From Escherichia coli (GTDB taxonomy: Bacteria > Pseudomonadota > Gammaproteobacteria > Enterobacterales > Enterobacteriaceae), in the NCBI RefSeq assembly GCF_045037415.1, contig NZ_CP173438.1: 64,000 bases of DNA; one strand, written 5' to 3'. Positions 43,999 to 63,075 of this stretch are shown here, piece by piece. The position numbers were made by a program, and so were the translations under genes. The notes under the pieces were generated by a model, which had not been told where the DNA came from, searched no databases, and was given only the letters and a program-made list of their open reading frames with translations. The first letter of the stretch is position 1; each line of letters opens with the position of its first letter.

Positions 43999-44074
<76 letters not shown>

Positions 44075-44127
44075 GTTTAAAAGGCATCGGCGTCAGCGGA
44101 TGTCTGGCTGAAAGGCCTGAAGAATTT

Positions 44128-44201
44128 GGCGCGTTAACAAAGCGGTTATGTAGCGGATTGCAAATCCGTCTAGTCCGGTTCGACTCCGGAACGCGCCTCC
44201 A
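44128..44201 (+). tRNA. cysT: tRNA-Cys (anticodon GCA)
   Basis: GGCGCGTTAACAAAGCGGTTATGTAGCGGATTGCAAATCCGTCTAGTCCGGTTCGACTCCGGAACGCGCCTCCA. Confidence 0.95.
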
Positions 44202-44213
44202 CTTTTTTCCCGA

Positions 44214-44300
44214 GCCCGGATGGTGGAATCGGTAGACACAAGGGATTTAAAATCCCTCGGCGTTCGCGCTGTGCGGGTTCAAGTCCCGCTCCGGGTACCA
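44214..44300 (+). tRNA. leuZ: tRNA-Leu (anticodon TAA), long variable arm
   Basis: GCCCGGATGGTGGAATCGGTAGACACAAGGGATTTAAAATCCCTCGGCGTTCGCGCTGTGCGGGTTCAAGTCCCGCTCCGGGTACCA. Confidence 0.95.
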
Positions 44301-44430: not shown

Positions 44431-45447
44431 TCATTTTCTCTGGCCACCAACTACGGGCACTACTTTAACTTTCCGGTCATATGCTGCTGTCTGTCGCGGG
44501 TTCTTATGCCCGGAAATTGCTTGCTTCTCTTCCAGGCTGCCTTCCAGATCAGAGATACCTTTTGCTTTCAGATCATGAAATGTGAAGTCTATTTGCAGAT
44601 GAGGATATTTTTCCTGTGCTGCCGCTTTGACATCACGCCAACGAGAGTTAAAACCATCACGGGTATACTTGCCACCGGTAGTTTGATGAATCACAAACAG
44701 GCTACTGATTCCCGTTTTTAATGGCAGAGAACGAGCCAGAGCTATCGCTTTCTGCAGACGAGGCGACCAGGCTTTGATTTGCTTAACGCCGGTTTTTCCC
44801 TGACGAATGTAGATCCCGGAATCGAACAGCTGGTCTTTCTGCAATGAAAGTACATCACTCTGTCTGGCCACGCATAAGTAGGCAATCTCCATTGCTACGC
44901 GAACAACATCAGGAGACACTTCATAAACGGCCTGATATTCTTCATCCGTAATATAACGTTCGCGAGCTTTCTCTTTAAACTGTTTAACTCCCTGACAAGG
45001 ATTCCTCTGAACATAACCTCGTTCATAACCCCAACGGAATACCCGGGACATAAAGCTTTTTTCCCTGTTTGCCTGAGTTCGGCTTGATAAACCGCGTTGA
45101 TCCATATAGCGCCGAATATGTTCAGGTTTGATTTTATCCGGGTCGATCTTCCCGAAGACAGGCAGAACTTTTCCGGAATATTTTGTGTAGTCTTTCCGGG
45201 TTTCGACTGCCAAATCCATAAAATCAGGGGAGGTCATGAATTGTTCCGTGAGCGCCTGAAAAGTATTTCTTTCTTTTTCGTCACCGACCGCTTTTTCATA
45301 TGCCAGCCATACGGCTGATCGTGGTGCATCCAATGCGCACAGGCGTATCGCTTTGTTATCTTTATTCCTGAATTCGTAGGCCGCTTTGCCCTGGTAAACA
45401 CGAGGCGGCATCCAGTTATCTGCTGGGTTCTTTCTCTTTCCGGCCAT
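44431..45447 (-). CDS. int: Phage tyrosine integrase (lambda Int family)
   Basis: C-terminal catalytic region ...HDLKAKGISD...ISGHKNPRQTAAYDRK...; N-terminus MAGKRKNPADNWMPPRVY resembles the lambda Int arm-binding start; start codon ambiguous (45447 or 45477). Confidence 0.85.
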   Translation of the reverse strand: MAGKRKNPADNWMPPRVYQGKAAYEFRNKDNKAIRLCALDAPRSAVWLAYEKAVGDEKERNTFQALTEQFMTSPDFMDLAVETRKDYTKYSGKVLPVFGKIDPDKIKPEHIRRYMDQRGLSSRTQANREKSFMSRVFRWGYERGYVQRNPCQGVKQFKEKARERYITDEEYQAVYEVSPDVVRVAMEIAYLCVARQSDVLSLQKDQLFDSGIYIRQGKTGVKQIKAWSPRLQKAIALARSLPLKTGISSLFVIHQTTGGKYTRDGFNSRWRDVKAAAQEKYPHLQIDFTFHDLKAKGISDLEGSLEEKQAISGHKNPRQTAAYDRKVKVVPVVGGQRK

Positions 45448-45679
45448 TAAATATTGCTCCAAAATCAGGTTCATCATCTTTTCGCGTCGTCACCTCCTGT
45501 AAATTGCGAAATTTTATTGGGTTCATGAAATGGCCCCAGGTTGTTTTTGGGTGTCCGTCAGCCCTTTCCATGAAGAAAATTCCAGCCCGGCGAAGAGCCT
45601 CACATTGCTTTGATTTAAGTGGGCTTCCCGTCAGCTCGACCATTTCTTCTCTGGTGATTATGTCGTGATCGCTTTTCAT
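45416..45679 (-). CDS. xis: Excisionase-like DNA-binding protein (DUF4224-like)
   Basis: ITREEMVELTG...ALRRAGIFF...GHPK motif pattern; overlaps the integrase 5' end as is typical for xis-int. Confidence 0.55.
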   Translation of the reverse strand: MKSDHDIITREEMVELTGSPLKSKQCEALRRAGIFFMERADGHPKTTWGHFMNPIKFRNLQEVTTRKDDEPDFGAIFNGRKEKEPSR

Positions 45680-45869
45680 GGTCTTTCCTCATTATGTAGC
45701 TTATTGCGTCATCTGCCTTCTGGCAGGCACGGGCAATATCAGACTCGGTCAAAGTCTGTTTCCTGACGCTGGCCGACAGTCGACCAATTTTGATATCAAA
45801 TGCGGAGAGCAGAGTTGCTCCCGGTTGCCATCGCAGCATTGTGATCCTCCGGTGTCTGGTGAATCGCAA
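45615..45869 (-). CDS. Hypothetical small prophage protein (uncertain; overlaps the xis-like ORF in another frame)
   Basis: 84-aa ORF only; no recognisable domain. Confidence 0.25.
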   Translation of the reverse strand: MRFTRHRRITMLRWQPGATLLSAFDIKIGRLSASVRKQTLTESDIARACQKADDAISYIMRKDHEKRSRHNHQRRNGRADGKPT

Positions 45870-45888
45870 TGCTAGCGATGGTGAGTTT

Positions 45889-46071
45889 TTATTTCTGATT
45901 AGGCGTAATCAGTTCTTGTGGGGTGAATGCCGATTTCTCCCGAGTGACCTTAATGTTTTCTGGCAGGTGTAGCCCAAGTTCGCAGCGGCTCCGTGCTTCA
46001 ATAATGCCATTGGTACCATCGGCAAGTACCAGGTGAACCGCGTCACCACGCTTTAATGTGAGTTTAAGCAT
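45889..46071 (-). CDS. Hypothetical small prophage protein
   Basis: 60-aa ORF whose stop abuts the downstream gene's start. Confidence 0.4.
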   Translation of the reverse strand: MLKLTLKRGDAVHLVLADGTNGIIEARSRCELGLHLPENIKVTREKSAFTPQELITPNQK

Positions 46072-46640
46072 TAGCGTATCCTCAGTGACCGTTCGCCGCG
46101 TTCCAGATGTGCGCCTGGTACCGGGTTTAATAACTCGGCTGGTGGTGTTTCTCCACGCGCCAGTATTTCGGCGGCAACCGCCTCCGCAGATTCAATCACT
46201 TCTTTAATGGCTCGCTTGTTTGGTGTAATAACCGTTTCTACATCAACAAGTGACACGCCCTCATACTCATCCGGGATCTTATCTTTGCTATCGATAATTA
46301 CCCGGATAGTCCCCTGTGCATCAGTAAATGTGTTTTTTGCGGTTTTCAGTTTATCCAGGCCAGCAGCTTGCAGGCAGGTGAGCATATGCTTTCGAATTGC
46401 TTTTTCCTTGCCTTCAAAGGACGTCTTACGGGTTGCCAGGCGAGACATTTCTTCAGCGCAGGTATTGGCATTGCCCTGTAAATTACGGCAGATGACCATC
46501 ATGGCGTCCAGTTTGTCTCCCAGTTCTCCTTCCATGCCTTCAAGCGTGTCGGCGATCATCTCTGGCGTCAGTTCATCGGCGGTTTCTAACAGGTCAATCA
46601 GACTGGCATATTCTTTTGCAATAGCGATAGCAGTGCTCAT
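46071..46640 (-). CDS. Hypothetical prophage protein (possibly Gp157-like), immediately downstream of the SSAP gene
   Basis: 189-aa acidic helical protein; stop/start overlap with flanking genes suggests one operon. Confidence 0.55.
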   Translation of the reverse strand: MSTAIAIAKEYASLIDLLETADELTPEMIADTLEGMEGELGDKLDAMMVICRNLQGNANTCAEEMSRLATRKTSFEGKEKAIRKHMLTCLQAAGLDKLKTAKNTFTDAQGTIRVIIDSKDKIPDEYEGVSLVDVETVITPNKRAIKEVIESAEAVAAEILARGETPPAELLNPVPGAHLERGERSLRIR

Positions 46641-48853
46641 GCTGTTTGCTCCTGTGCAGCGGTAAGGGCGGCGAGGCGTTCAGTTTTAATGTCGGTGATA
46701 CGGCGCAGACGTGATCCCAGATACGATGAATATTCTTTATCGCCTTTGGTTTCCGCTGCTTTCCTGTGTACATCCACTTCGCGGGCGATGAGGCCAAATA
46801 CCTTGTTTACTTCGTTGGCGGTTACCGCGGCGGCCAGCGTATTGGCAACGTTGATAAGCTTCTCATCCAGTTCCTTACGCAGACGGGTAGCATCTTCCGC
46901 ATTCTCGCTGGCATTCTTGATATCAAACTCAGCTTTATTCCTCTGGCGGTATTCCGGATTGTCGTACAGGCCCATGAAAATATCGGCGCTGAATCCGAGA
47001 GGGGATAGCGCTTTCTTAACAGCATCCGTCCAGGATTTCTTCGGTGCTTCGCCGTCGCTTGTTGGTCCGTATTTAGTGTCGTAGATATAAGGTGTGCATC
47101 CGTAAGCCTCGGACTCACCGCGTACCCCATTCAATATGTACCAGACTCTCACTTTCATGGTGTGGTGCATTTCACATAGGTACCCGCCAACACCGTCTTG
47201 AATCAGATCCCATTCTATTTTTTCACCAACCTGTTTTTTGCGAACTATTGGTGCGCCTTTATCAAAGCGCTCCTCCAGCACCTCTACCCCCCAGCCAATA
47301 CCAAATGGCCCAAATTCGCGAGTCGCTTTCATCGCTATATAAGTGCCGTTGATGGATGTGCCGCCGCCATTCTGAGAGAAAGCACTGGTGAAGCGCTCAT
47401 CGGTTTTGAATACGTTCTTCCACAATGCCAGGTTATCCGTGTCATCTGAGTCCTTTAACTCCGTTTCGATAGCTGAGATTGCATTCTGCCGCTTGTGCTC
47501 TTCGGCATGGATCCGCTCAACCAGCGCGTCAACGTTCTGCACCAGATCCTTTACCTGCTCGCTAAGTTGTTCTTGTGGAGGAGTCTCTTCTGCCAGGGTA
47601 ATAGCTGCAGGTTCCCTCTGTGATACGGCGTTATTTTCAGGTACGTCATACACATGGCGAGGCGTGACAAACTGCTCACGCAACTGCTGCAAACTACGTT
47701 CTCCAGCATTTGCAGCTTCGCTTTTTTCGCCCTGATTTGAGGGTGTTTCTGACATCATCCCATCAATTGAGAATCGTCCGCCGCCGTGGTTGGTGACTTT
47801 TACATCATCCTTGGGTGCTGCTTCCTTTGGCTTCTCTTCAACAGCATTTGCATCACGCTGCCCGTTAGCTTGCAGCCAGTTGTCGATGTGACTGCGCAGG
47901 GATTGTGGGAAGTGGTACGTGTCTTTTGCGGGGGCGCTCTGAATAACACCGAATACTGATGCGCGGTCATAGGCAAGGATCTGATCCGTTGTGCGCAAGG
48001 CCATTGACCAGCGTTTAAAATCTTCCCTGTCCTGACTGATTATTTCGTCTGCCGCTTTCAGGATGCTGGGGGTGATTTTTTCCGGGGCAACAGGTAACAG
48101 GGCGCAGGCAATTTCACGATCCAGAGTGGCGTGAGTCTGTTTGTAAGGACGTGCGGATGCTGTTTCTGGTTTTACCTCCGGCAGCATTTCATCTCGTTTA
48201 CCGGGATTCTCTACCCATTTTTTTATAAATTTGGAGATAGTCCAACTGGTCGGGTTTTGTTCCTGGGTATCGCAACTTGCCAAAATTGCATGTACCAGAT
48301 TATTCAATCCAGCAATATGCATGTACTCGATGGGCTTACACGCCACCATGGCATCAAGAACGATGCGGTTAAACGCGTCAACCTCATCCTCACTGTCAGT
48401 ATCACTGTTATCGAGCATCTCCAGGTATTCACGCGTCTGCACAAGCAATTCACTGTCGACTTCGTTGGCGTCGTGGCTGAACAGCAGAACGGCGGCGAAT
48501 CGTTCACGAGCCGGCAGTTTCATCAGGTCGCTAACCTGTGAGATATCTGCTGAACTGCAATCTGAATCAACAGGAGTGTTAACTACCCATTTTTCGCCAT
48601 CAAAACTGTGTTCTGTGGCAAACGTCTCATCAAACTCACCGACGCCTGGGCGCGGTTGGCCCGGGGCATCTTCCCAGATTTTAGGTTTGAAATAGTTGTC
48701 GCCGTGGTCAGGGTAGGCTTCCCACAATTTGCCGATGATGATGTTCTCGGCAACTTTTTTGTTAGGGGCGGCGATGGCGATGGCCAGCGCCGGGATCGCG
48801 CCGTTTTTGAGCGCGCCTTTTTTCGCTTCTAACAAGCCGTTAAAAATGGTCAT
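46637..48853 (-). CDS. Large recombination protein: unassigned N-terminal region plus C-terminal Rad52/Sak-like single-strand annealing domain
   Basis: C-terminal FGPFGIGWGVEV ... TDAVKKALSPLGFSADIF pattern typical of Rad52-family SSAPs; acidic low-complexity linker mid-protein; 738 aa. Confidence 0.7.
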   Translation of the reverse strand: MTIFNGLLEAKKGALKNGAIPALAIAIAAPNKKVAENIIIGKLWEAYPDHGDNYFKPKIWEDAPGQPRPGVGEFDETFATEHSFDGEKWVVNTPVDSDCSSADISQVSDLMKLPARERFAAVLLFSHDANEVDSELLVQTREYLEMLDNSDTDSEDEVDAFNRIVLDAMVACKPIEYMHIAGLNNLVHAILASCDTQEQNPTSWTISKFIKKWVENPGKRDEMLPEVKPETASARPYKQTHATLDREIACALLPVAPEKITPSILKAADEIISQDREDFKRWSMALRTTDQILAYDRASVFGVIQSAPAKDTYHFPQSLRSHIDNWLQANGQRDANAVEEKPKEAAPKDDVKVTNHGGGRFSIDGMMSETPSNQGEKSEAANAGERSLQQLREQFVTPRHVYDVPENNAVSQREPAAITLAEETPPQEQLSEQVKDLVQNVDALVERIHAEEHKRQNAISAIETELKDSDDTDNLALWKNVFKTDERFTSAFSQNGGGTSINGTYIAMKATREFGPFGIGWGVEVLEERFDKGAPIVRKKQVGEKIEWDLIQDGVGGYLCEMHHTMKVRVWYILNGVRGESEAYGCTPYIYDTKYGPTSDGEAPKKSWTDAVKKALSPLGFSADIFMGLYDNPEYRQRNKAEFDIKNASENAEDATRLRKELDEKLINVANTLAAAVTANEVNKVFGLIAREVDVHRKAAETKGDKEYSSYLGSRLRRITDIKTERLAALTAAQEQTA

Positions 48854-48883
48854 TGGTCTTTCCTCATTACAGGTCAGTGGTTT

Positions 48884-49204
48884 TTAGTAGGGGAGCTCAT
48901 CGGTATCTGGCGTGTATTCGATGCAAAGTAACTGCTGGATTTTGTCATCGATAGCAGCAATACGCTGTTGGGCGTCGGCGACTGTTTTCTGTTTTTGTTC
49001 ACGCAGTTGCTCGACCTGTAAACCGATGATGTCGATTGGCTCGGGCTGGTTAACGGTAATTTCAATTTCGCGGCTTTCCAGAAGGATGTACCTGTCTGGA
49101 AAATTTTTTGACATATCAACAGTCGCAACAAGCAGCTTTTCGTGGCTGAAAGTTGAAGTTGCATAATGAATAAAGAGTGTTACTGGGATGGTGCGCGCTT
49201 CCAT
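48884..49204 (-). CDS. Hypothetical prophage protein
   Basis: 106-aa ORF with perfect RBS CCAAGGAG before the ATG. Confidence 0.55.
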   Translation of the reverse strand: MEARTIPVTLFIHYATSTFSHEKLLVATVDMSKNFPDRYILLESREIEITVNQPEPIDIIGLQVEQLREQKQKTVADAQQRIAAIDDKIQQLLCIEYTPDTDELPY

Positions 49205-49209
49205 AGCGA

Positions 49210-50214
49210 CTCCTTGGTAATGTATACTCAGAGCCGATCAGCGAATATTGATCAGCTTCCATAGCGTCAGTGTCGTTGGTCTTTCCTCATCACAAGTTTG
49301 GTCACTTGTGATAAATCCGAATGGTTTGGTCGCCGTTCGGGGTAACTGGCCCGCCTTGTGCGGGTCTTTTGCTATCTAAAGGGTGCCGGTTACGTTTCCG
49401 GCGTCGTTATGTTTCCATTACGACCGTACAGGGCTGGTCAGGCCCGGGCTGGTCTTTCCTGTTTTGAGCTGGTCAGGCTCATGGTCAACGCTGGTCAGGC
49501 GTGGTACTTCCTCCGGTCTTTCCCTGGTGTCACGCTGCGGGTTTGGCCTCTCCTGTTGGGGACTCAGGCACAGCGATAAAACCTGGCTGTGTGAAAAAAT
49601 GGCCCATCGTGCGGACTGGGCAAAGACTAAACACAGCAAATTGATGATGGGCGCCCGGAATCGAACCGGGTAACGGGCAGGGAGTTCCCGTTAAACACCT
49701 GTTCACCACAACCGGGAGCGCACTCCGCCATTTCAAAATTTAACGACAAAGCTCAAAGTTGAGTCGATGAAGTGCGCTCTCGTGTTGTAGCCAGGACTCT
49801 TCCCTGGTGGTCACACCGTATCGCCTTGATGGTGAATCAATCGCTCATACCTGGCTGTGGCTTGCACATTCCGGCTACCTGCTATGGAGACAACGCGTTA
49901 AGGCTCCGCTTCCATCCAGACCGCTTCGACACATGTGCCATATGCCGGTGAAGTCTTTCCCTCTGTCACCGTGTTGGCGCCGACGCGCAAAATTTGGTGC
50001 CGTCTTTCCGGCTGTCAGAACGTGTTTCTGAACAACTGCCGCTGGGTAAGCGTTGTTGATGAAAGTGACTTTACAATTTGTATTTGTAATGGTCAATGTG
50101 TTTTTAAAAAATAATTTGTAGTTAGGGGCAAAAAAATATTCACTGTGTAAAGGTGTTTTTGTGTTAGGGGAAAGTTGCATGCCAGCAGCGGCTGGCCTGG
50201 AAATTTGAACTGAA
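49210..50214. repeat. About 1-kb prophage noncoding region rich in short direct/inverted repeats (GCTGGTCAGGC and GGTCTTTCC families)
   Basis: No convincing ORF on either strand; GCTGGTCAGGC at 49433, 49468, 49491; TCTTTCCCTGGTG-like units near 49516, 49797, 49953. Confidence 0.6.
50071..50125. promoter_or_regulatory. Operator-like repeats downstream of the repressor gene (OL-like)
   Basis: TTACAATTTGTATTTGTAAT and ATAATTTGTAGTTA, related to the repeats in the cI/cro intergenic region. Confidence 0.4.
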
Positions 50215-50629
50215 CTATTTTGTCTGGTTTTTGGCTTCAAGTAGTTCTTTTAGCAGTAGATCGAAGTGCTCTCTTTTTTCTTTTAGCTCATTGATTAATT
50301 TATTTTTTTCGCTCTCAGGCAGTCCTCTGAATAGTTGCAGTAGAGCCTGTTCTTGCGGGGTTAGTTCTTGATTGTAATTACCCGGGTGTAGTGTGGATTC
50401 ATCCAAATATTCCCCTTCATTCATGAAGAAAAAATGAACAGGGTATCCGGTCACTTTTGCTAGCTTGTCTAATTTATCTTTTCTTGGAGTTACCCCATTA
50501 CACCATGCCTGAACTGATTGAGCCGTAACCCCAATATGGCGAGCTAACTCAGATTGAGAACCAGCCTAAGTCTTTTAGAATCCGTTGTAGTCGGCTAGCA
50601 AAAGCCATGTTTTTCGTTTTTGTGTTCAT
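50215..50629 (-). pseudogene. cI-like XRE-family HTH repressor, disrupted by a +1 frameshift
   Basis: N-terminal stub MNTKTKNMAFASRLQRILKDLGW then stop; the HTH continues SQSELARHIGVTAQSVQAWCNGVTPRKDKL... in the next frame; deleting one T in TGGTTCTC near 50558-50562 restores a single ORF. Confidence 0.7.
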
Positions 50630-50727
50630 ACCGTAAGGATACAAGGTTTAATTGTAGGGAGCATTGCAAATATAATTTGTAATTACAGTTATTGTTTGTA
50701 ATGATGACGCGGACACAAGGAGTCCAT
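50630..50727. promoter_or_regulatory. Divergent immunity promoter/operator region (OR-like) between cI-like and cro-like genes
   Basis: Perfect 10-bp palindrome TGTAATTACA at 50678-50687 plus TTGCAA and TTTGTAAT repeats; TATAAT-like -10 element. Confidence 0.55.
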
Positions 50728-50958
50728 ATGGATAAACAACTGCAAGACAAAATTCTTTCCGTAATGAGTCAATCCGAGTTAGGGCGGCGATTAGGGAAAA
50801 AACCACAAACGGTAAGCCTCTGGTTCAAAGGACGGGTTCCCGGTGAAGAGGTTTTGCGCACATCTGAAGCTCTTGAATGGCGCGTGACCCCTCATGATCT
50901 TAGACCGGATCTTTACCCAAACCCAGATGACAGCTTGCCTAAAACGGAAGCAGCTTAA
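50728..50958 (+). CDS. Cro-like HTH regulator (YdaS-like)
   Basis: MDKQLQDKILSVMSQSELGRRLGKKPQTVSLWFKGRVP HTH; AAGGAG RBS; divergent from the repressor. Confidence 0.7.
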   Translation: MDKQLQDKILSVMSQSELGRRLGKKPQTVSLWFKGRVPGEEVLRTSEALEWRVTPHDLRPDLYPNPDDSLPKTEAA

Positions 50959-51016
50959 CTGTTGGTGAGCCCCAAATCTGATTAAGCGTAATCAATTTTT
51001 AGCGACAGGAGACGCT

Positions 51017-51493
51017 ATGGAAAACCAAGAGGAATTACAAAAAGAGATTTTGACCTGGGCGGCAAGGGCAGGGCAGGAACTCGTCACGATTGAAATCTGC
51101 CGGGCCTGGTTCAGTCAGGGACGCAATGATGAGTTGAGACTACATGAATTTGAGGACGCGGACGGCAACGTGGACTGGAGAGCCATCAACAACAATCGGC
51201 AGAAAATCTTTCGCTGGTTACGTGGCGAGACAACGGCGGCGCGCCGAAAAACTCAGGTGCTGGCCAGTGTGATGAAAGCCGTGCTACCCGCAGAACGGCG
51301 GGCACGTCTGGAGTCGCCGGGCGATCCCGTTTTGCTGGCAACGCTGGCGGCAAAAGAAGGGGTGGAAGCGATTAACGCTGTACATCTCCACTTCGCGCCA
51401 GAGTTAACTATTCAGGAAATTGACGAAGCAATAGCGGCGCTGGTAGCGACGCGAGGAGCAGTGATACGCACTGCGCAAGACCACCATGCATGA
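51017..51493 (+). CDS. Hypothetical early regulatory protein (CII/YdaT-like position)
   Basis: 158-aa ORF with AGGAG RBS following cro-like gene. Confidence 0.5.
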   Translation: MENQEELQKEILTWAARAGQELVTIEICRAWFSQGRNDELRLHEFEDADGNVDWRAINNNRQKIFRWLRGETTAARRKTQVLASVMKAVLPAERRARLESPGDPVLLATLAAKEGVEAINAVHLHFAPELTIQEIDEAIAALVATRGAVIRTAQDHHA

Positions 51494-51532
51494 GCGCCTG
51501 ACCAGCGTTTAACTTATACCGAGGAAAGACCG

Positions 51533-51757
51533 ATGTTAAGACATATTGACCGCATTACCTGGCGTAACGGCTGGCACCTGAATGGACGCCCGGCACATGT
51601 TGCAGAGATCCGCCCCATATTCGATGGCCGCGTCGCAGCTGCACGTTCTGTATGGGAAAAGTACGAAGAAGAAAAAGCGAAACTGCGTGAGCAAAATCTC
51701 TCTGGCGCTGCCTATGAGGCTGGCTGTCGCGTTCTCTCAGAGGCTTTGGGCATATGA
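51533..51757 (+). CDS. Hypothetical small prophage protein
   Basis: 74-aa ORF preceded by the conserved CGCCTGACCAGCG...GAGGAAAGACC motif. Confidence 0.5.
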   Translation: MLRHIDRITWRNGWHLNGRPAHVAEIRPIFDGRVAAARSVWEKYEEEKAKLREQNLSGAAYEAGCRVLSEALGI

Positions 51758-52509
51758 ACATCCTCCCGTTACTTGATAGACCCATAGCCTTCCAGAGAAG
51801 TTTTATCCGTCTTGAAATGGGCGTGACTGCCGCATTGTTTCTGTCGCAGTTGACGTACTGGACAAACAGAACAACTGACGACGGCTGGGTATATAAAACC
51901 CAGGATGAGTGGGAAGAGGAAACAGGGCTTTCACGATACGAGCAGGAGGGCGCGCGCAAAAAACTACGTGGTCTCGGCGTCTTGCTGGAACGTAAACAGG
52001 GCTTGCCTGCCAGGCTGTACTACAAAATCGATAATGATGTGTTGTGCCAGCTACTTACGTCCGCATACAAGGATGCGGAAAAACCACATACAGGTGAGGG
52101 GAAAACCACCAGGCCTGTACGTGGAAAACCAACAAACATTCTTACAGAGAATACTACAGAGATTATTACTGATGGTGAATCGGCTGACGCCGACACCCAA
52201 CAACCTGCCGACCAGAGAATAAATTATCAGGTGATACTCGATACCTATCACGAGATTTTGCCAGAGATGCCACCAGTGAAAATCCTCACTGACGGCAGAA
52301 AAAAACACCTTCGCACTTTCTGGAAAAAATTCAATTTCAATGAGTCCCGTTGGCGGGCCTATCTGGAATTTATCGGTGGCAATTGTCGCTGGATGCTGGA
52401 GGACAGGCCAAATGGCAGGGGAGGATTCTGGCGGCGTAAAAATCTTGATTATCTGATTACCGAACGCTGCTATGTTTCGGTCAAGGAAGAACGCGCAAAT
52501 GATAAATAA
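51754..52509 (+). CDS. Phage replication initiation protein (O-like / replisome organiser)
   Basis: N-terminal winged-helix-like region and conserved phage C-terminus (...GGFWRRKNLDYLI); immediately precedes the helicase. Confidence 0.65.
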   Translation: MNILPLLDRPIAFQRSFIRLEMGVTAALFLSQLTYWTNRTTDDGWVYKTQDEWEEETGLSRYEQEGARKKLRGLGVLLERKQGLPARLYYKIDNDVLCQLLTSAYKDAEKPHTGEGKTTRPVRGKPTNILTENTTEIITDGESADADTQQPADQRINYQVILDTYHEILPEMPPVKILTDGRKKHLRTFWKKFNFNESRWRAYLEFIGGNCRWMLEDRPNGRGGFWRRKNLDYLITERCYVSVKEERANDK

Positions 52510-53914
52510 CGCGATTGCACTGTACAGCGTTGACGCAGAACAGGCTGTTCTGGGCTGTCTGATGCTGAATACCGACCACGACAGAACCAATGCGGTATTT
52601 GCGTTACTGAAACCGGAAACGTTTTATATCAATGCGCATCAGGTTATCTACCGGGAGATCAAAGGATTATTTCAAGCTGATAAACCAACTGACCTGATAA
52701 CACTGACCGAACTGATGGAATCGAAGGGGCTGTATGAGCGCGTGGGGGGATTCGCATACCTGGCTGAAATGAGTAAGGCGGCGATTCCGGCCTCAATGGT
52801 CAACTACGCGAAAATTGTACGTGAAAAAGCCATTCTTCGTTATGCCGTGGAAAAGTTGAATTCTTGTCTGGAGATTATGATCCAGCCTGCAGATATGACT
52901 GCTACTGACAGGATCACCGCCGTTCAGCAAGTGATTGGGCAGGTGGCCGAACATTCCCGTACCGGGCATAAGGGCGGTTTGCGTCCGGCAAGTGAAGTCG
53001 TCGATGACTGGATAGATGACCTTGAGCGCCGTTTCAATGATCCAGCACATGCAGCCGGACTAACGCTCGGAATCGAAAGCCTTGATCGCTTAATGGCACC
53101 AAAGCAGGCGTTAAGAGGTTCATTGGTCGTTATTGGTGCCCGGCCAAAAATGGGCAAGACAGCCGCGTTTAATAAAATTGCGGTGCATTTTGCTCTGAAT
53201 CATCGTTTGCCGACGCTGGTATTTAGCCTGGAAATGACTGACAGAAGTCTCATTGAACGCATGGTTGCGCAGGAAGCAAAGGTCAATTCGGAGATTTTTT
53301 ATCTTGGCCCTAACGATGAATCTGAATTGAGTCTCGCAATAGCAAAGGCGGGGGAGATTGCCGAATCCAACATGATGATTGACAGCACGGCAGGTGTAAC
53401 CCTTGCGCATATTGTCGCTGAATGTCGAAAAGTTAAACGGATGCGTGGCTCGGTTGGCCTGGTGGCAATTGACTATTTGACGCTGATGAAGACCGAATCG
53501 GCAGAGCGTAGGGATATTGCGTATGGCGATATCACAACCGGTTTGAAGAACCTGGCAAAAGAGCTGGATTGTGTTGTGGTCCTGCTGACGCAACTCAACC
53601 GAAAGCTTGAAGAACGTGCCGATAAGCGGCCTAACCCGAGCGACAGTAAAGATACCGGGCAGATCGAACAAGATTGCGATGTCTGGATTGGCCTCTATCG
53701 TGATGCTGTTTATAACGAAAATGCCGACCCAAATCTCATGGAAATGTTGCTACGTCTGAACCGCGAAGGACCATCGGGAACAGCCTATGCCCTGATGAAA
53801 AATGGCTCAGTTATTGATATCAGCGATGAGGAGGTTTATCGCCTTACCAACGACCGCTCAGAAAAAAATAAACGTTATTCCCGTAGCGATAATTCTCGCA
53901 CAAATGAATTTTAA
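52499..53914 (+). CDS. Replicative DNA helicase, DnaB family (phage-encoded)
   Basis: DnaB N-terminal domain (AEQAVLGCLML...), Walker A GARPKMGKTA, RecA-like core. Confidence 0.9.
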   Translation: MINNAIALYSVDAEQAVLGCLMLNTDHDRTNAVFALLKPETFYINAHQVIYREIKGLFQADKPTDLITLTELMESKGLYERVGGFAYLAEMSKAAIPASMVNYAKIVREKAILRYAVEKLNSCLEIMIQPADMTATDRITAVQQVIGQVAEHSRTGHKGGLRPASEVVDDWIDDLERRFNDPAHAAGLTLGIESLDRLMAPKQALRGSLVVIGARPKMGKTAAFNKIAVHFALNHRLPTLVFSLEMTDRSLIERMVAQEAKVNSEIFYLGPNDESELSLAIAKAGEIAESNMMIDSTAGVTLAHIVAECRKVKRMRGSVGLVAIDYLTLMKTESAERRDIAYGDITTGLKNLAKELDCVVVLLTQLNRKLEERADKRPNPSDSKDTGQIEQDCDVWIGLYRDAVYNENADPNLMEMLLRLNREGPSGTAYALMKNGSVIDISDEEVYRLTNDRSEKNKRYSRSDNSRTNEF

Positions 53915-53952
53915 CCACGCCTGACCAGCGTGAAATAACCGAGGAAAGACCA

Positions 53953-54363
53953 ATGACCACCACTCCAGGCAAATTAGAGTACCCGTCGGACAAAGGACAC
54001 ATAGACGACGGTAAAAACTATCTCGACGTCATTTTGTGGAATATGAACGTCGGGCCACGTGCGCGCACTCGCGCGGTTTTTGTGCCAAGACCTAAAGCAG
54101 GCAATTTTTCAACCCCTGCTAAGCCTGCCCGTCAGGCATCCGTAGCCGCAGCGCCAGCAGTGAAACGTAAGGGCAAAACGCACACCGGGATCGCGATTCG
54201 CAGAAATGGTGAGCGGCAAGTGAAACTCCACGAAACAGCGACAACCTGGTGTGCCTCACCGCATGAAACTTACGACAAGATAACCGGGCAGCGCATTGGC
54301 GCGCCTGGTCGCTGCCGCCTGCTGCTGAGTTCCATCACTCCGATAGCAAAGAAAGGGGCGTGA
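53953..54363 (+). CDS. Hypothetical prophage protein
   Basis: 136-aa ORF preceded by the conserved intercistronic motif. Confidence 0.5.
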   Translation: MTTTPGKLEYPSDKGHIDDGKNYLDVILWNMNVGPRARTRAVFVPRPKAGNFSTPAKPARQASVAAAPAVKRKGKTHTGIAIRRNGERQVKLHETATTWCASPHETYDKITGQRIGAPGRCRLLLSSITPIAKKGA

Positions 54364-54364
54364 T

Positions 54365-54601
54365 ATGGCCGGGCAATCAGATTACCTGCCGCCCGGCTTA
54401 CCACACAACCGCGCCAAATGGCCCCAGGAATACCAGCTTAAAGAGCACTACGACATGCGAGCGGCGGCGCTGATCCGCCAACTCTTTGAGAAACGTATTC
54501 CGAGGGGAAGCGTGATTGAGCAAATCGGAATGACGCCAGATACGTACCGGGAATTTTTCAGAGAGCGTCTGAACTACTGGAGAGGGGTGATGGAACAATG
54601 A
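54365..54601 (+). CDS. Hypothetical prophage protein
   Basis: 78-aa ORF, start abuts upstream stop. Confidence 0.45.
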   Translation: MAGQSDYLPPGLPHNRAKWPQEYQLKEHYDMRAAALIRQLFEKRIPRGSVIEQIGMTPDTYREFFRERLNYWRGVMEQ

Positions 54602-54909
54602 AATACAAACGGTGGGTGCGTGCGGAAGTCGTAATCATCAAACAATGTGCGGGCAGCATGACAGTTGAACGTATAGGGCAGCTTATTGGCAGAACCGGTG
54701 CAGCGGTACGCACAAAAGCGCGCGAGCTGAAAATCTGTATGTATCTGCGGGGTAATTATCACCAGTCAGTGAAATACCTCCAGGAAGATATCGAGCTGGC
54801 AAGGGAATTACATCAGTCGGGTATTAATCGCCAGGATATCGCAGAAAAACTCGAAATGCCGATCGGAGCGGTGAATCAGTTTGTTTATTTTGAGCGGAGA
54901 ATTTCATGA
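54598..54909 (+). CDS. Hypothetical prophage protein with HTH-like segments
   Basis: 103-aa ORF; stop/start overlaps on both sides. Confidence 0.45.
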   Translation: MKYKRWVRAEVVIIKQCAGSMTVERIGQLIGRTGAAVRTKARELKICMYLRGNYHQSVKYLQEDIELARELHQSGINRQDIAEKLEMPIGAVNQFVYFERRIS

Positions 54910-55130
54910 AAGAACTTTTTCTTGCATTTGTGCCCCGGTTTATTAATGACCAGATCGCACTGACTGATAATGGTGAACAATATGAAATTGCCTGCAGCAT
55001 GGTGGATGTGAATCCTGGCGAACGGTATGACGCGATGTGTGACCTGAAAATATTTACCTGGCTGGGTTGGGCTATTCCGTGTGGAGAACCAACCAATATT
55101 CGTCCGTTTGAGAGCAGGGAGGCTGTATGA
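54906..55130 (+). CDS. Hypothetical prophage protein
   Basis: 74-aa ORF. Confidence 0.4.
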   Translation: MKELFLAFVPRFINDQIALTDNGEQYEIACSMVDVNPGERYDAMCDLKIFTWLGWAIPCGEPTNIRPFESREAV

Positions 55131-55317
55131 GTGAATTGAAAATACGTCGCAAGGCAATAGCACGCGTTAAAAATCTATTACCAGTGCCTGTCAAATATCG
55201 TTTTTGTGGTGGGAATGTACGGATTGGTACGGATGTATGGTGATTGCGGAGTGACGTAAAACGAATCGTTGTGGGTGTAATATCGTCAATATCATTGGTT
55301 TCCCGGAGGGAAAGGAC

Positions 55318-55539
55318 ATGTTTGGCGATAAACTGGAGTTACCACGGAACGGGCGGATAGTGCTCTATATTTCAGATTACAAAGTAACCCGGGCTGAGGT
55401 GTTGGAACCGGAAAAACATCTGGTCACGTTACCGGACATTATTGAGTTGTATAAGCGGGTCGGATATGTGGACTTGCATCGCGATGATGTTCCCGTTGAG
55501 TGTATGGAATGTGAACACCGGAGGTTTGAAGTTGATTGA
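55318..55539 (+). CDS. Hypothetical prophage protein
   Basis: 73-aa ORF with GGAGG-like RBS. Confidence 0.45.
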   Translation: MFGDKLELPRNGRIVLYISDYKVTRAEVLEPEKHLVTLPDIIELYKRVGYVDLHRDDVPVECMECEHRRFEVD

Positions 55540-55763
55540 ATTGACTTAGAAAAAGTCCGGGGCTATAGTTTCCGCGCAGCCGCAAAATCGGTTGCCGGGA
55601 TTGGCGTCCCGGATATCTAAGTGACGCATAGCCGCGTTAGCGGTTTTTTTATGTGTTAGGCACGGCCACATTCGCATTATGGTGGGCTGTGTGGGGGCTT
55701 CTGTGGAAGCGCCGGGTTCACTTAGCCGGTTACGCCAACCCTGCACAGCTCACCACCAGATGA

Positions 55764-56600
55764 TTGGCGTCGCTGGTGGTGATGAAAAAAACACTAAGTG
55801 AGGCCACTGCGATGACAGTCCAAATATCTGCGGAATCCCTTTCTCCGCTACATCATAACCAACTTCCCGTCATCACTACTGAATTGCTTGCCAGTTTGTA
55901 TGGCACGGAAGTAAATGGTATCCAGCAAAACTTCAAGCGCAACATCGCCAGATTTGTCGTAGGAAAGCATTTTTTTAAGCTGGAAGGTAATGAATTACGC
56001 GACTTCAAAAACAGACTGACAGATAGTCAGTCAGTTGCTAAACATACCCGATCCCTCATTCTCTGGACAGAACGCGGCGCAGCTCGCCATGCCAAAATGC
56101 TGGAAACAGAACAGGCCTGGGAAGTTTTCGAAAAGCTGGAAGATTGTTATTTTAGCCAGCGTCCAGAGAGGCGGAGTACAACTACCGATGACCGTACTCC
56201 CTTGCGTGATGCCGTTAATATACTGGTCGGCAAGAAAGGCATGATGTATCCCGATGCCTACACCATGATTCATCAACGCTTCGCCGTCTCTCACATAGAA
56301 CAACTGTCACAGACGCAAATGTTAGAGGCGATTGAATACATCCACTGCCTGCTACTCGATGAAAATCACCCAACCATTCCAGATTTTTCTTTTATCACCA
56401 CTATCAAAAATGGAAAAGTGACCGGGATGCGCCATGTTGCCAAAGGCGAACATCTGATGACCTTTGACGCTTTCAAAGAGATCGCTGAGCGGGCAGGGTA
56501 TCTGGTGATCCACAGCGACAATCTGCGAAGTATGACACTGGATAAATTGATGGTAATGGGGAAAAAGTCGGCTATATCCGTTGCTAATTCAGCATTTTGA
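55764..56600 (+). CDS. ORF6N/KilA-N-domain protein (antirepressor-like)
   Basis: N-terminal ...LPVITTELLASLYGTEVNGIQQNFKRNIARFVVGKHFFKLEGNELRDF... pattern; start codon uncertain. Confidence 0.6.
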   Translation: MASLVVMKKTLSEATAMTVQISAESLSPLHHNQLPVITTELLASLYGTEVNGIQQNFKRNIARFVVGKHFFKLEGNELRDFKNRLTDSQSVAKHTRSLILWTERGAARHAKMLETEQAWEVFEKLEDCYFSQRPERRSTTTDDRTPLRDAVNILVGKKGMMYPDAYTMIHQRFAVSHIEQLSQTQMLEAIEYIHCLLLDENHPTIPDFSFITTIKNGKVTGMRHVAKGEHLMTFDAFKEIAERAGYLVIHSDNLRSMTLDKLMVMGKKSAISVANSAF

Positions 56601-56628
56601 CAGGTTGTTTGGGGCGGAAATACTCTAT

Positions 56629-56696
56629 TTGCGCTTAAAAAGGTATTTGACCACGACCAGCACGAGACCGAATACCTCTGTCAAAGTACCGCCCAT
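56629..56696. repeat. Direct repeat copy 1 (68 bp): 3'-end remnant of a membrane-protein gene
   Basis: 63 of 68 positions identical to 60051-60118; minus strand encodes a 23-codon remnant MGGTLTEVFGLVLVVVKYLFKRK preceded by a stop. Confidence 0.85.
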
Positions 56697-56774
56697 ATAA
56701 AACAGTTACATATGCACTTGATGACTAAGCTGGCACCAGGTTAACACCTGGCGCCAGCTTGAAGGAGACTTCAG

Positions 56775-57698
56775 TTATTGGTTTCTGAGGAAAGCGATTC
56801 TTGAAAGGGTCATTTGCGTCTGGCAGTCGACCATTTTCTTGACTTCAGCATCTGTTCCCTGCATTGAAACTTTACCGCACATAGCATCCTTAGTTTTGAT
56901 CCACTGACGCTGAGAAGGCAGCAAATCTTTTTTCTTCGCCGGGGTTAACTTGCTCCAGACGGTACTCAAATCAGAGTCGGCATTCGCAAATGCCATTCGG
57001 GACTGATCAAGGTTGTCAGCTTTTTGCGGCTGAAGTTGTGCCTGTCTCTCTATTTGCTTCTCCGCCTCATACTTAGCCTGTTCTTGCGCCCTGAGTTGCA
57101 CCTGTTGTTCCGCTTCAATTTGACTCTGTTGGGCATCCTTAGCCTGCTGGATTTTCTGCTGCTCAACGATCGGGGTGATAATGGAAAGCGATGTCAGTAA
57201 AGCGGCGCCCACTGATATCGGATTATCAGTAGAGGTTTTTACAAAAACGTTTTTCTGATCGTCGGTCGCCTGCACGGTGTAGGTGATACGTTTTGAAAAG
57301 GCGTTTGCGTTGTTCTCCAAAAACAGGCTTTCCATTTGCTTATCGAGATTACGATTAAAATTCTTTCTGTAAGCATCTGAAAGCTGGACGTACTCGTTCG
57401 CAGATAGAGTCATCGTCACGGTCCCTTCACAAGTTTTCATTGTGCTGCCCGTGTCACTTGATGTTGTGGAGATCTCAGAGATGGCTAGTTTGATCTTGTC
57501 CAGTGTGCTTCGTTTGGTCTGATTAGTGACATCAGGGTATTTATCGACCTGTTCAGAGAGTCCTTCATAAGCAGATTTTTTTAATAAATCCATGAGAGCT
57601 GACTGGGTTATTTCCGAAGAACAACCGATCTCATCTTTTTTGTTATCACAGCCTGTAAGGGCAATGGCGAGTAAGAGTACTGAGTATTTTAATCTCAT
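56775..57698 (-). CDS. Prophage lipoprotein with LprI/DUF1311-like C-terminal region
   Basis: Lipobox LTGC after signal peptide MRLKYSVLLLAIA; Gln-rich coiled-coil middle; C-terminal two-Cys region ...WIKTKDAMCGK...MVDCQTQMTLSRIAFL. Confidence 0.65.
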   Translation of the reverse strand: MRLKYSVLLLAIALTGCDNKKDEIGCSSEITQSALMDLLKKSAYEGLSEQVDKYPDVTNQTKRSTLDKIKLAISEISTTSSDTGSTMKTCEGTVTMTLSANEYVQLSDAYRKNFNRNLDKQMESLFLENNANAFSKRITYTVQATDDQKNVFVKTSTDNPISVGAALLTSLSIITPIVEQQKIQQAKDAQQSQIEAEQQVQLRAQEQAKYEAEKQIERQAQLQPQKADNLDQSRMAFANADSDLSTVWSKLTPAKKKDLLPSQRQWIKTKDAMCGKVSMQGTDAEVKKMVDCQTQMTLSRIAFLRNQ

Positions 57699-58885
57699 GA
57701 ATTCCCTTTAGAGTAAGGATTGGTTTTTAAGACGCGGTCTGTAATCAGTCCCGAGAGCTACAGTAAACAACGCTGAGCACTGAACGCATCACAGGTAAGG
57801 TAAAAGGTGATATCGGCAAAGGCTGTGAAACCTTTAATTCAACAGATGGGAACGGTATGCGCAGGATCCTGTAACGACGCTCCCAAAACCGGAAACCTGT
57901 AAGGCATGTTTTCGCTGCTGAACTTAATATACGAACCTGCACTATCATGAACATATTTTATATCGTTATACCCCGAGTGATTGTGCCCGGCAATGGATAG
58001 TGTCCTGGAGGAACTATTTCTACTGTAAAAGGTAGATATTTAATTTCAGTTTTGAATTATTCCCTGCTGTTAATAACAATGGCTGTATATGGCACCGAGT
58101 AGGCATTTTTTCGCTTACTGAAGGGCAGCTGTGAGCGAGGAACAGACTTTCCCTACTTCGTTGAGAGTACACCTAGTACAATCAAGGCTAAATGATAAAA
58201 ATATACAAAATATCATATTTATGATATATATAATGGCATTAATCTTATTCTTGGATTACGTTGAAAGGGTAATATTATATTTGTGTAACATAGTTTAGAT
58301 AACAATGCCGTTATGGGGGGGGAAAGACATTTCAACATATTAGCTTTGTATCTAACGCTCATGTAGATCTCGATTTTGAACTTAAAGAACAATTATTTTT
58401 TAGAGAGCAAGGTATTTTTGGGGAACAAAAACATAAAGTAATGGAGAGAGGAGAATGTATCAAAAAATCATCGATTTAATTTAGATTGTCCGTATAGTTG
58501 GGGGTAAGTCGAATCGCTGGGCTACATGGAATATTGTGTCAAGTAAAAATATATTTCAATCTTGCAATAACCGATTGTTGAAAATAATGTCAAATCTTAA
58601 TGGTGAATGGGGAGAATATAATAAACATGAGTCGATATTATGCAAATGGATTTAAATATTTTATACCCGAAGACATAGGGTTTCGAGAGTTCGATGAGAC
58701 TACTTTGAATGCTTTCGAATTTGCTGGCTAAAACATATAGGTTATATCTTACATCTGTTTGTAATGGAGCGTAGATGCGACAAGCTACACCATAATAATC
58801 ATATTATGATATATTGTTAAGTTGTTATGGCATTAAATAAAATTATGTCATTTTGTTAACCAAGCAAGAATCAAAGGACTTTTAG

Positions 58886-62667: not shown

Positions 62668-62818
62668 TGACCATAAACGGTTTAATCCCCTATAAAACCG
62701 TTTAATAAAATTCACGACGTGAATATAATTGTTCATTATTCCCTCATTGTATTTGGCGTTATGACAAATGCCATAAAATACTGTATAAATATACAGGTTG
62801 TGGCATTGGGGGGAAGAC

Positions 62819-62998
62819 ATGAATATTCAAGAATCTATAGGCGAACTACCGGAAACATGCCGGGCTGTTATCAAGCGTAAGGACGGACACATCGTTGGTG
62901 TGCGTGTTCTGACCGATGATGAGCGGATTGCCAGCCTGATGGCGTTTCTCGAGTTGGCAGAAATAGCTGGATATACTATTACACCCCCTGACGCGTAA
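62819..62998 (+). CDS. Hypothetical small prophage protein
   Basis: 59 aa from MNIQESIGELPE. Confidence 0.4.
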   Translation: MNIQESIGELPETCRAVIKRKDGHIVGVRVLTDDERIASLMAFLELAEIAGYTITPPDA

Positions 62999-63075
62999 AA
63001 CACGGTATAATATCGGTGCTGGATTGAACACCCGGCATCATTTTCTGAACACTGCCGCGCCACCTGGAGTTAACC

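Follow-up and report, generated by a model that had tools for sequence, protein, structure and literature searches.

In bacteriophage lambda, the repressor gene and cro are transcribed divergently from two back-to-back promoters covered by three intergenic dyads, and the same dyad recurs at the leftward promoter beyond the repressor gene. This layout is shared, with putative promoters, by the locus described here, the immunity region of a lambdoid prophage of Escherichia coli (assembly GCF_045037415.1, contig NZ_CP173438.1), which was analysed within a stretch of 64,000 nucleotides (nt), hereafter termed the window. Further characteristics in common with lambda are a weak site at the putative promoter of the repressor gene itself, a probably leaderless repressor messenger RNA (mRNA), and a module that is exchangeable between otherwise similar phages. 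Despite these similarities, several differences set the two loci apart. Specifically, the repressor here is a protein of 137 amino acids (aa) without the S24 self-cleavage domain, the operator sequence is unrelated to that of lambda, two of the sites (a and b, described below) abut with their centres 19 base pairs (bp) apart where lambda has 24 and 23 bp, one strong and one weak left operator (OL) site are seen, and the Cro protein and the cII analogue are of the YdaS and YdaT types, respectively.

The operators of phage 434 are 14 bp long and read ACAA-N6-TTGT. By sequence, the helix-turn-helix (HTH) of the 434 repressor is the closest solved relative of the HTH encoded in the window, the ACAA...TTGT ends stand in the same orientation in both systems, and the sites of one relative of the prophage, the Klebsiella phage ST16-OXA48phi5.1 (ACAAGAAAAACTTGT), resemble 434 OR1. 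In contrast to 434, however, the spacing here is one bp longer (ACAA-N7-TTGT), such that the number of positions is odd and one base pair forms the centre of the site; the recognition helix reads TAQSVQAW rather than TQQSIEQL; and the C-terminal domains are unrelated, that of 434 belonging to a self-cleaving repressor. A 14-bp site of the 434 type was considered for this locus and rejected, as every site found is ACAR-N7-YTGT or its TGCA variant, with a 15-bp core extended to 17 bp by an outer T and A.

Similar in the architecture of the repressor are Gifsy-1, -2, and -3, prophages that encode homologous short repressors (GfoR, GtgR/GftR, and GfhR, respectively) that likewise carry no cleavage domain (Lemire et al., 2011; PMC3121763). 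GtgR binds the right operator (OR) of Gifsy-2 and is released from it by an antirepressor; Gifsy repressors remain uncleaved at induction, small LexA-controlled antirepressors serving to take them off the DNA (PMC3121763). The Gifsy prophages also share with the present locus a conserved leader downstream of the leftward promoter (PL), as well as a LexA box and small open reading frame (ORF) to the right of the replication genes, while differing in their operator motifs, as befits heteroimmune elements, and in the dinI gene, which is not found beside the LexA box here.

With respect to its Cro and cII analogues, the locus can be compared with the PaaR2/YdaS/YdaT region of CP-933P, where a Cro of the YdaS type precedes, as here, a cII analogue of the YdaT type, with a YdaT dyad between ydaS and ydaT that is matched here at 50978-95 (Jurenas et al., 2021, PMC8630535; Prolic-Kalinsek et al., 2023, PMC9986795). 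In CP-933P, PaaR2 and YdaS leave footprints at the repressor promoter (PRM) and the rightward promoter (PR), PL lies with operators beyond the repressor operon, and the repressor is leaderless (PMC8630535). The CP-933P operators differ from those described here in consensus (GTTTAGTAA) and occur as four 18-bp repeats, and the toxin-antitoxin genes that follow the CP-933P repressor are not present here. Similarly, the RacR-YdaS-YdaT region of the Rac prophage, likened to this locus by layout and not by sequence, presents a small prophage repressor that faces a ydaS-ydaT operon and binds the intergenic region (PMC5700373, PMC5700377); loss of RacR is lethal in K-12, however, while the strain examined here carries a frameshifted repressor gene. 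The region as a whole is a lambdoid immunity region of an ordinary type, the Gifsy or YdaS-YdaT kind.

Dyad sites on both sides of the repressor gene

The repeats surrounding the repressor gene very probably constitute the OR and OL operators of the prophage lysogeny switch, the unit being a 17-bp dyad that would be bound by a dimer of the 137-aa repressor. This interpretation is favored because exact dyads cluster at the locus, OL1 lies within the putative PL, the dyad arms are conserved, the motif is exchanged together with repressor and cro, the repressor has a 434-like HTH, and experimental precedents exist. The sites, their clustering, conservation, and replacement with the module, and the protein families involved, are direct observations.

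The dyad has the form TRCAR-N7-YTGYA, with a core of TACAA-N7-TTGTA and a half-site of about TACAAATA. Exact matches number four in the 64 kilobases (kb), all inside 629 bp around the repressor gene (50072-50700): three between the repressor gene and cro and one 127 bp past the repressor stop. The three intergenic matches comprise a weak, OR3-like site c (TACAAGGTTTAATTGTA, 50640-50656), a strong, OR2-like site a (TGCAAATATAATTTGTA, 50665-50681), and a strong, OR1-like site b (TACAGTTATTGTTTGTA, 50684-50700), while the fourth is the strong dyad OL1 (TACAATTTGTATTTGTA, 50072-50088). A further weak site, OL2 (TTAAAAAATAATTTGTA, 50104-50120), has one good half-site and is centred 32 bp from the centre of OL1. 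At the level of individual words, TTTGTAAT is found at 50083, 50676, and 50695, ATAATTTGTA at 50111 and 50672 with no other copy in the 64 kb, and four of the window's six copies of ATTTGTA fall within 50076-50681. The repeat strings quoted in the first-pass annotation of this DNA are thus present where it placed them, and the similar repeats that it reported 100-150 bp beyond the repressor stop codon (50215-50217) occupy 50071-50124, or 91-144 bp past that codon.

A symmetrised weight matrix was built from the three right-hand sites only and compared with 200 shuffled windows. With this matrix, OL1 is the top match in the rest of the window, scoring 20.9 bits against a maximum of 19.2 in the 200 shuffles. 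When each site is left out of the matrix in turn, rank 1 among ~64,000 positions is attained by site a, by site b, and by OL1, while site c ranks 4 and OL2 ranks 3-5. The locus hence contains three strong sites (a, b, and OL1) and two weak ones (c and OL2), and the repeat family as a whole is far beyond chance.

The first-pass annotation had also named another element, the 10-bp palindrome TGTAATTACA, among its operator-like repeats. The palindrome is indeed perfect and is present as a single exact copy in the window (50678-50687), but it arises where the right arm of site a (...TTTGTA) is followed, 2 bp (AT) further on, by the left arm of site b (TACAG...). Perfect 10-bp palindromes are also common, with 68 in the window and a probability of ~0.14 of at least one in shuffles of the 66% A+T intergenic region. 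In three homoimmune relatives (L005, L006, and L009) the a/b junction instead reads TGCATTTACA, which is non-palindromic, despite an identical repressor HTH. As the junction of two adjacent 17-bp dyads, lost in homoimmune relatives, the palindrome was rejected as an operator.

Because half-sites alternate along the a/b interval, they necessarily give a second symmetry, and it could be argued that this other register (TTTGTAAT/ATTACAAA, with half-sites tail to tail) is the true unit, possibly serving Cro/YdaS while the repressor reads the 17-bp register. 434-type HTH dimers, to which the repressor is related by sequence homology, bind ACAA...TTGT in the outward orientation, however; sites c and OL1 stand alone, in the TACAA-N7-TTGTA register only; and the junction has lost its palindromic character in L005, L006, and L009 though the HTHs of both repressor and Cro are conserved. 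Consequently the tail-to-tail register is considered very unlikely to be the unit, even though TGTAATTACA is perfect in a Salmonella relative (L003) as well as in the window, and two overlapping repeat classes have been reported for the footprinted CP-933P region (PMC8630535).

The 17-bp dyads are retained among homoimmune relatives from Salmonella, Klebsiella, and a metagenome, whose repressors are 65-87% identical to that of the window and have an identical HTH region; a first protein search found seven repressor relatives, and a scan of the viral_contigs set contributed ten identical copies and one 66%-identical relative, adding little diversity. The Cro HTH is likewise nearly invariant among homoimmune relatives. 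The repressor-cro intergenic regions of these relatives align with that of the window and keep all three dyads: site a in L009 is a perfect 8+1+8 palindrome (TGCAAATATTATTTGCA), site b reads TACAAATATTGTTTGTA in L006 and is near-identical in L005 and L009, and the arms of site c are kept in all relatives. On the left, OL1 is found at the same place in L003, L005, and L006, all three of which also keep TTAAAA...ATTTGTA in the OL2 slot. Variability is highest in the 5 bp that separate site c from site a and in the bases after site b; across five lineages, the dyad arms and slots are kept while the c/a spacer and the 6 nt before the repressor ATG vary.

Between the repressor gene and the left dyad, the relatives L003-L008 (Salmonella, Klebsiella) carry an additional gene. 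It encodes 157 aa, has no match in Pfam, stands immediately behind the repressor gene, where lambda has rex, and is followed by a strong terminator. This gene is absent from the E. coli prophage in the window. The left dyad of the relatives lies ~95 bp beyond it, inside a conserved GGTCAA…TAGAGT/TAGATT promoter. A SieB gene is present nearby in L005.

Comparison with heteroimmune relatives, which the first-pass annotation had recommended as a check, bears out the expectation that operators travel with their repressor. The prophage of E. coli TUM13936 (L024) matches the window at 95% identity as far as 49993, without a difference across 50018-50061, and at 96% identity from 50976 onward, while the exchangeable immunity module in between (50062-50975, comprising OL/PL, repressor, OR, and cro) is unrelated or only weakly similar and encodes a different 131-aa repressor of like architecture and a Cro with an unrelated HTH. 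Between these flanks, repressor and cro have been exchanged and so has the dyad motif: TACAA dyads are absent in L024, whose 5.1-kb locus has three copies of TAAC-N4-GTTA, two of them in OR slots and one in the OL2 slot. Similarly, the Klebsiella phage ST16-OXA48phi5.1 (L010), with a repressor 42% identical to that of the window, has TACAAG-N5-CTTGTA dyads of like geometry in both OR and OL, and phage SPN3UB has its own, different word (ATTAAATTTGA) common to OR and OL. In Gifsy-2, an operator motif could not be cleanly defined from words shared by OR and OL. In L024, L010, and SPN3UB, the sites thus follow the repressor/cro module, as operators should.

These findings bear on whether the repeats might simply be chance similarities or generic promoter elements in AT-rich DNA that serve no specific regulator. 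The A+T content of the region, the occurrence of a 10-bp palindrome in 14% of shuffles, the overlap of the sites with -10- and -35-like sequences, and the behavior of the dyad pattern with one mismatch, which is not enriched in the window (23 found, 29.6 expected), would all fit such an explanation. That only exact matches carry signal follows from this last result; yet the exact dyad is found nowhere else in the 64 kb, held-out sites rank 1 of ~64,000 positions, the OR-derived matrix scores OL1 above all shuffles, and the motif in L024 changes with repressor and cro while the promoter framework and flanks stay. An origin by chance is accordingly regarded as extremely improbable.

It is also conceivable that the sites are bound mainly by a protein other than the HTH repressor, such as Cro/YdaS alone, YdaT, or a host factor. 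Cro is itself an HTH protein that is exchanged with the sites in L024, such that covariation cannot separate Cro from the repressor, and of the two only Cro is intact in the window. In every studied system of this layout, however, repressor and Cro share operators (as in lambda, in CP-933P, and in Gifsy-2, where GtgR binds OR), a separate YdaT-type dyad exists elsewhere (50978-95), and the placement of a site in PL fits a lysogenic repressor. Binding chiefly by another protein thus appears very improbable; the YdaS-type Cro would most likely bind the dyads in addition to the repressor.

The repressor, putative promoters, and a proposed model of the switch

The repressor gene occupies 50215-50629 on the minus strand and, when intact, encodes a 137-aa protein with an XRE/434-type HTH and a C-terminal helical hairpin. 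Its start is most likely the upstream in-frame ATG at 50629, which is conserved in all lineages, gives the 137-aa form, and is followed by a conserved N-terminal peptide, MN(T/K)K..N (a Salmonella protein has Leu for the second Met). Pfam returns HTH families only (HTH_3) in the intact protein, with no S24 peptidase domain. Together with the length of 137 aa and the helical hairpin at the C-terminus of the AlphaFold model, this rules out a self-cleaving repressor like lambda CI or LexA. In tblastn searches, the Gifsy-1 and Gifsy-2 repressors show 33% identity over residues 10-137 (93% of the length; E 5e-11), and alignment reveals a C-terminal motif, LLxLFxxLPExEK, common to the Gifsy and window repressors; by homology, the protein is thus classed as a short, non-cleavable HTH repressor of the Gifsy type. 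The closest solved sequence is the DNA-binding domain at the N-terminus of the 434 repressor (E 4.5e-5, residues 11-67). The AlphaFold model (predicted local distance difference test 80) consists of a five-helix HTH domain, a disordered linker (residues 69-90), and the C-terminal helical hairpin; a Foldseek comparison with the PDB yielded generic XRE-family HTH matches only (SinR, 434, P22 c2, and C-proteins), all with E above 1e-3.

The proposal of lambda-type OR/OL operators made in the first-pass annotation thus holds with respect to layout, clustering, and the replacement of sites with the module, while the palindrome is not the unit, the repressor is not of the self-cleaving CI type, and the repressor gene is frameshifted here.

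On the far side of the repressor gene, the putative PL (50068-50096, minus strand) consists of a -35 element TTGACC (50096-50091), a 17-bp spacer, and a -10 element TAAAGT (50073-50068), with a predicted start near 50061. A consensus promoter scan of 49150-50800 returned it as the only minus-strand promoter-like match, and relatives keep both the GGTCAA that corresponds to the -35 element and a -10 element of TAGAGT/TAGATT. Consistent with this assignment is the finding that homology with the heteroimmune L024 resumes at 50061, such that the left boundary of the swapped module coincides with the predicted PL start. OL1 falls in the spacer and overlaps the -10 element (about -11 to -27), while OL2 lies upstream of the -35 element.

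The first ~62 nt of the putative PL transcript (50000-50061, minus strand) form a conserved leader, beginning CATCAACAAC, that is common to the heteroimmune relatives and has an 89% match in two 'Stenotrophomonas' phage records. The leader includes a hairpin, AACAAC...GTTGTT, that appears as GACAAC...GTTGTC in Gifsy-2 and in Klebsiella phage phi5.1, a compensatory change, and the hairpin is followed by a boxB-like GCCG-GAAAGA-CGGC. The leader may represent an antitermination or stability element.

In the 98 bp that separate the repressor gene from the divergent cro gene (50728-50958, plus strand), two further promoters can be proposed. The putative PRM has a -10 element TATCCT (50636-50641, minus strand) with the repressor ATG exactly 6 nt further on, which would put its +1 at 50629; site c spans -11 to -27 of this promoter. 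The hexamer TATCCT is invariant in five lineages, while the 6 nt that follow differ in each (TACGGT, TGGGCT, AGCGTC, ACAGCT, and GACACC), and none of the five has a Shine-Dalgarno sequence before the repressor ATG. Because the TATCCT-N6-ATG spacing is fixed, the 6 nt are variable, and a Shine-Dalgarno sequence is missing, the repressor mRNA is probably leaderless, with +1 at 50629. The putative PR (50677-50705, plus strand) would comprise a -35 element TTGTAA (50677-82), a 17-bp spacer, and a -10 element read either as AATGAT (50700-05, after TGT) or as TAATGA (50699-04), with a start near 50712; GTAATNAT at this promoter is kept in relatives. Site a covers the -35 element of PR and is centred at ~-44 from the putative PRM start, and site b fills the PR spacer and overlaps its -10 element. 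The predicted starts of PR and PRM lie ~83 bp apart; those of lambda are 82 bp apart. Leaderless repressor transcripts have precedents in lambda cI and in paaR2 (PMC8630535).

Taken together, the arrangement suggests the following model. A dimer of the 137-aa repressor, with its 434-type HTH, would bind TACAA-N7-TTGTA. Occupancy of site b, over the spacer and -10 element of PR, and of site a, over its -35 element, would turn off cro, ydaT, and the replication genes, while repressor at site a, located at ~-44 from the repressor start, could additionally activate a weak PRM that yields the leaderless repressor mRNA. The weak site c over PRM could limit repressor synthesis or allow Cro to turn PRM off, and OL1, together with the weak OL2, would silence the recombination/early-left operon from PL. 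As the repressor has no self-cleavage domain, induction would be expected to proceed via an antirepressor, as in the Gifsy phages.

Several points weigh against this model or lessen the confidence with which it can be held. Firstly, by sequence score alone site c and OL2 are not significant, and the one-mismatch pattern, as noted above, is not enriched. Secondly, the degenerate dyad pattern was derived from these same sites, a circularity that the leave-one-out and OR-to-OL comparisons lessen in part. Thirdly, the whole intergenic region is well conserved in close homoimmune relatives, such that conservation separates arms from spacers weakly. Additionally, PR and PRM fall below the thresholds of the consensus promoter scan and were read by eye and from conservation, and an alternative PR can be drawn (TTTAAT-18-TATAAT, 50647-50676, with TATAAT at 50671-76); under either reading of PR, RNA polymerase would be blocked by repressor occupying both site a and site b. 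Finally, binding, the exact promoters and starts, activation, order of occupancy, and induction route stand as predictions.

The repressor gene of the window carries an extra A at 50559/50560 relative to strain SK1144 and to the majority of 448 E. coli genomes, resulting in a frameshift after residue 23 of the 137-aa form. The sole long ORF remaining after the frameshift is without the HTH, while cro and ydaT are intact. The insertion, which may be a real mutation or an assembly error, is found in at least one other assembly, that of strain UID2309220015 (L002). With its gene frameshifted, the repressor cannot occupy the sites in the window, and the operators are thus currently orphaned. Should the frameshift be real and the prophage nonetheless persist, the operators might hold the switch in a stable, Cro(YdaS)-occupied 'anti-immune' state, or might be silenced by another factor; though unlikely, such a state would represent a natural lambdoid switch locked in its other position without killing the host, unlike Rac, where loss of RacR is lethal.

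Two other signals are located in or near the repressor gene. Within the gene, 50554-50581 on the plus strand is the top-scoring promoter-like match of the region (TTGAGA-16-TAGAAT, 10/12); the inserted A forms part of the first hexamer, so that in the intact allele the spacer would be 15 bp long, and the match is probably due to chance. Just past the repressor stop, an inverted repeat at 50171-50206 (minus strand) forms a hairpin, with the core GCCAGC-AGCG-GCTGGC, that makes a weak candidate for a terminator, lacks a clear T-run, and was not called by the terminator scan.

Induction candidates, spread of the prophage, and neighboring features

To the right of the operators, the cro analogue encodes a 76-aa YdaS-family HTH protein (Pfam YdaS_toxin, PHROG 35), and the cII analogue is a YdaT-family protein, described in Pfam and PHROGs as a 'CII-like activator'. 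Between the cro stop and the ydaT start, as in CP-933P, lies CTGATTAAGCGTAATCAA (50978-50995), which has one mismatch to the footprinted CP-933P YdaT operator, TTGATT-N6-AATCAA, and is the only such match in the window; it marks the right edge of the exchangeable module.

Two genes can be proposed as sources of an antirepressor. The window's only CTGT-N8-ACAG, the LexA box TACTGTATAAATATACAGGT (62781-96), lies 22 nt upstream of an ORF of 59 aa (62820-62999; region 62779-62999), making this ORF a candidate for a small, SOS-controlled antirepressor. The 59-aa ORF belongs to PHROG 340, which also matches the C-terminus (residues 197-238) of a 262-aa Ant protein; it has no detectable similarity to the Gifsy antirepressors or to anything in Gifsy phage records. 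The Ant protein is itself a candidate antirepressor. Directly upstream of the ORF6N/Ant anti-repressor gene (55563-56600) are Rfam matches to c4-a1b1, isrK, and C4 antisense RNA, an arrangement resembling the antisense control of the antirepressor in P1 immI, here within a lambdoid prophage.

The 64-kb window derives from the E. coli chromosome and contains DsrA, rseX, and a cluster of transfer RNA (tRNA) genes for Gly, Cys, and Leu (43999-44300), and the lambdoid prophage is integrated beside tRNA-Leu (leuZ). Of 5426 complete E. coli genomes, 448 (~8%) have the 1-kb stretch around the repeats at some level and 414 have it at 99% identity or above, always on the chromosome; many of the matching strains are human isolates. 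In SK1144, which differs from the window over 17 kb by two substitutions and two single-base indels (one being the extra A in the repressor gene), the annotation runs from integrase and early-left operon to a minus-strand 'helix-turn-helix domain-containing protein' of 130 aa (WP_000853106, to which the 137-aa form adds 7 N-terminal residues), and continues on the plus strand with a transcriptional regulator of 76 aa, a YdaT-family protein, genes for replication, and DnaB. Among 50,697 phage records searched with the DNA of the immunity region, the sole match was to 62 bp of the PL leader, in two Stenotrophomonas phage records, and by this comparison none of those records carries the immunity module. 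The operator and promoter map presented here applies to the prophage found at leuZ in ~8% of complete E. coli genomes, separates homoimmune prophages (TACAA-dyad relatives in E. coli, Salmonella, and Klebsiella) from heteroimmune ones, and offers targets for work on induction of this prophage, while leaving the understanding of such switches unchanged.

Leftward of the switch, Rfam at its gathering threshold gives no match in 49100-51100. At a relaxed E-value, an RprA-like match at 49592-49702 scores 37 bits, where the gathering score is 70, and was treated as chance. It overlaps a tRNA-like remnant at ~49647-49729 on the minus strand (T-arm CCCGGTTCGATTCCGGG, then CGCCCATCA), for which ARAGORN makes no call.

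A separate repeated word, GGAAAGAC, occurs 11 times in the window where 1.8 copies are expected, a count reached in none of 100 shuffles. All copies are inside the prophage (45190-58328, densest at 49279-50009) and in the sense of local transcription, and relatives L003 and L006 have 6-7 copies. In four cases, a start codon follows the copy after 1-2 nt (..GAGGAAAGACCnATG at 51523 and 53943; 48856 and 45681, minus strand), and two of these copies are preceded by CCTGACCAGCG. Five copies, together with three of GCCTGACCAGC, fill a gene-less stretch of ~860 bp between PL and the first leftward gene. Such copies could represent sequences associated with starts or with gene junctions, or else junctions that have decayed. 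Immediately before one copy, at 58315, the window and SK1144 differ by a single G in a run of G (ggggggg), a difference that could reflect either a homopolymer error or a variable tract.

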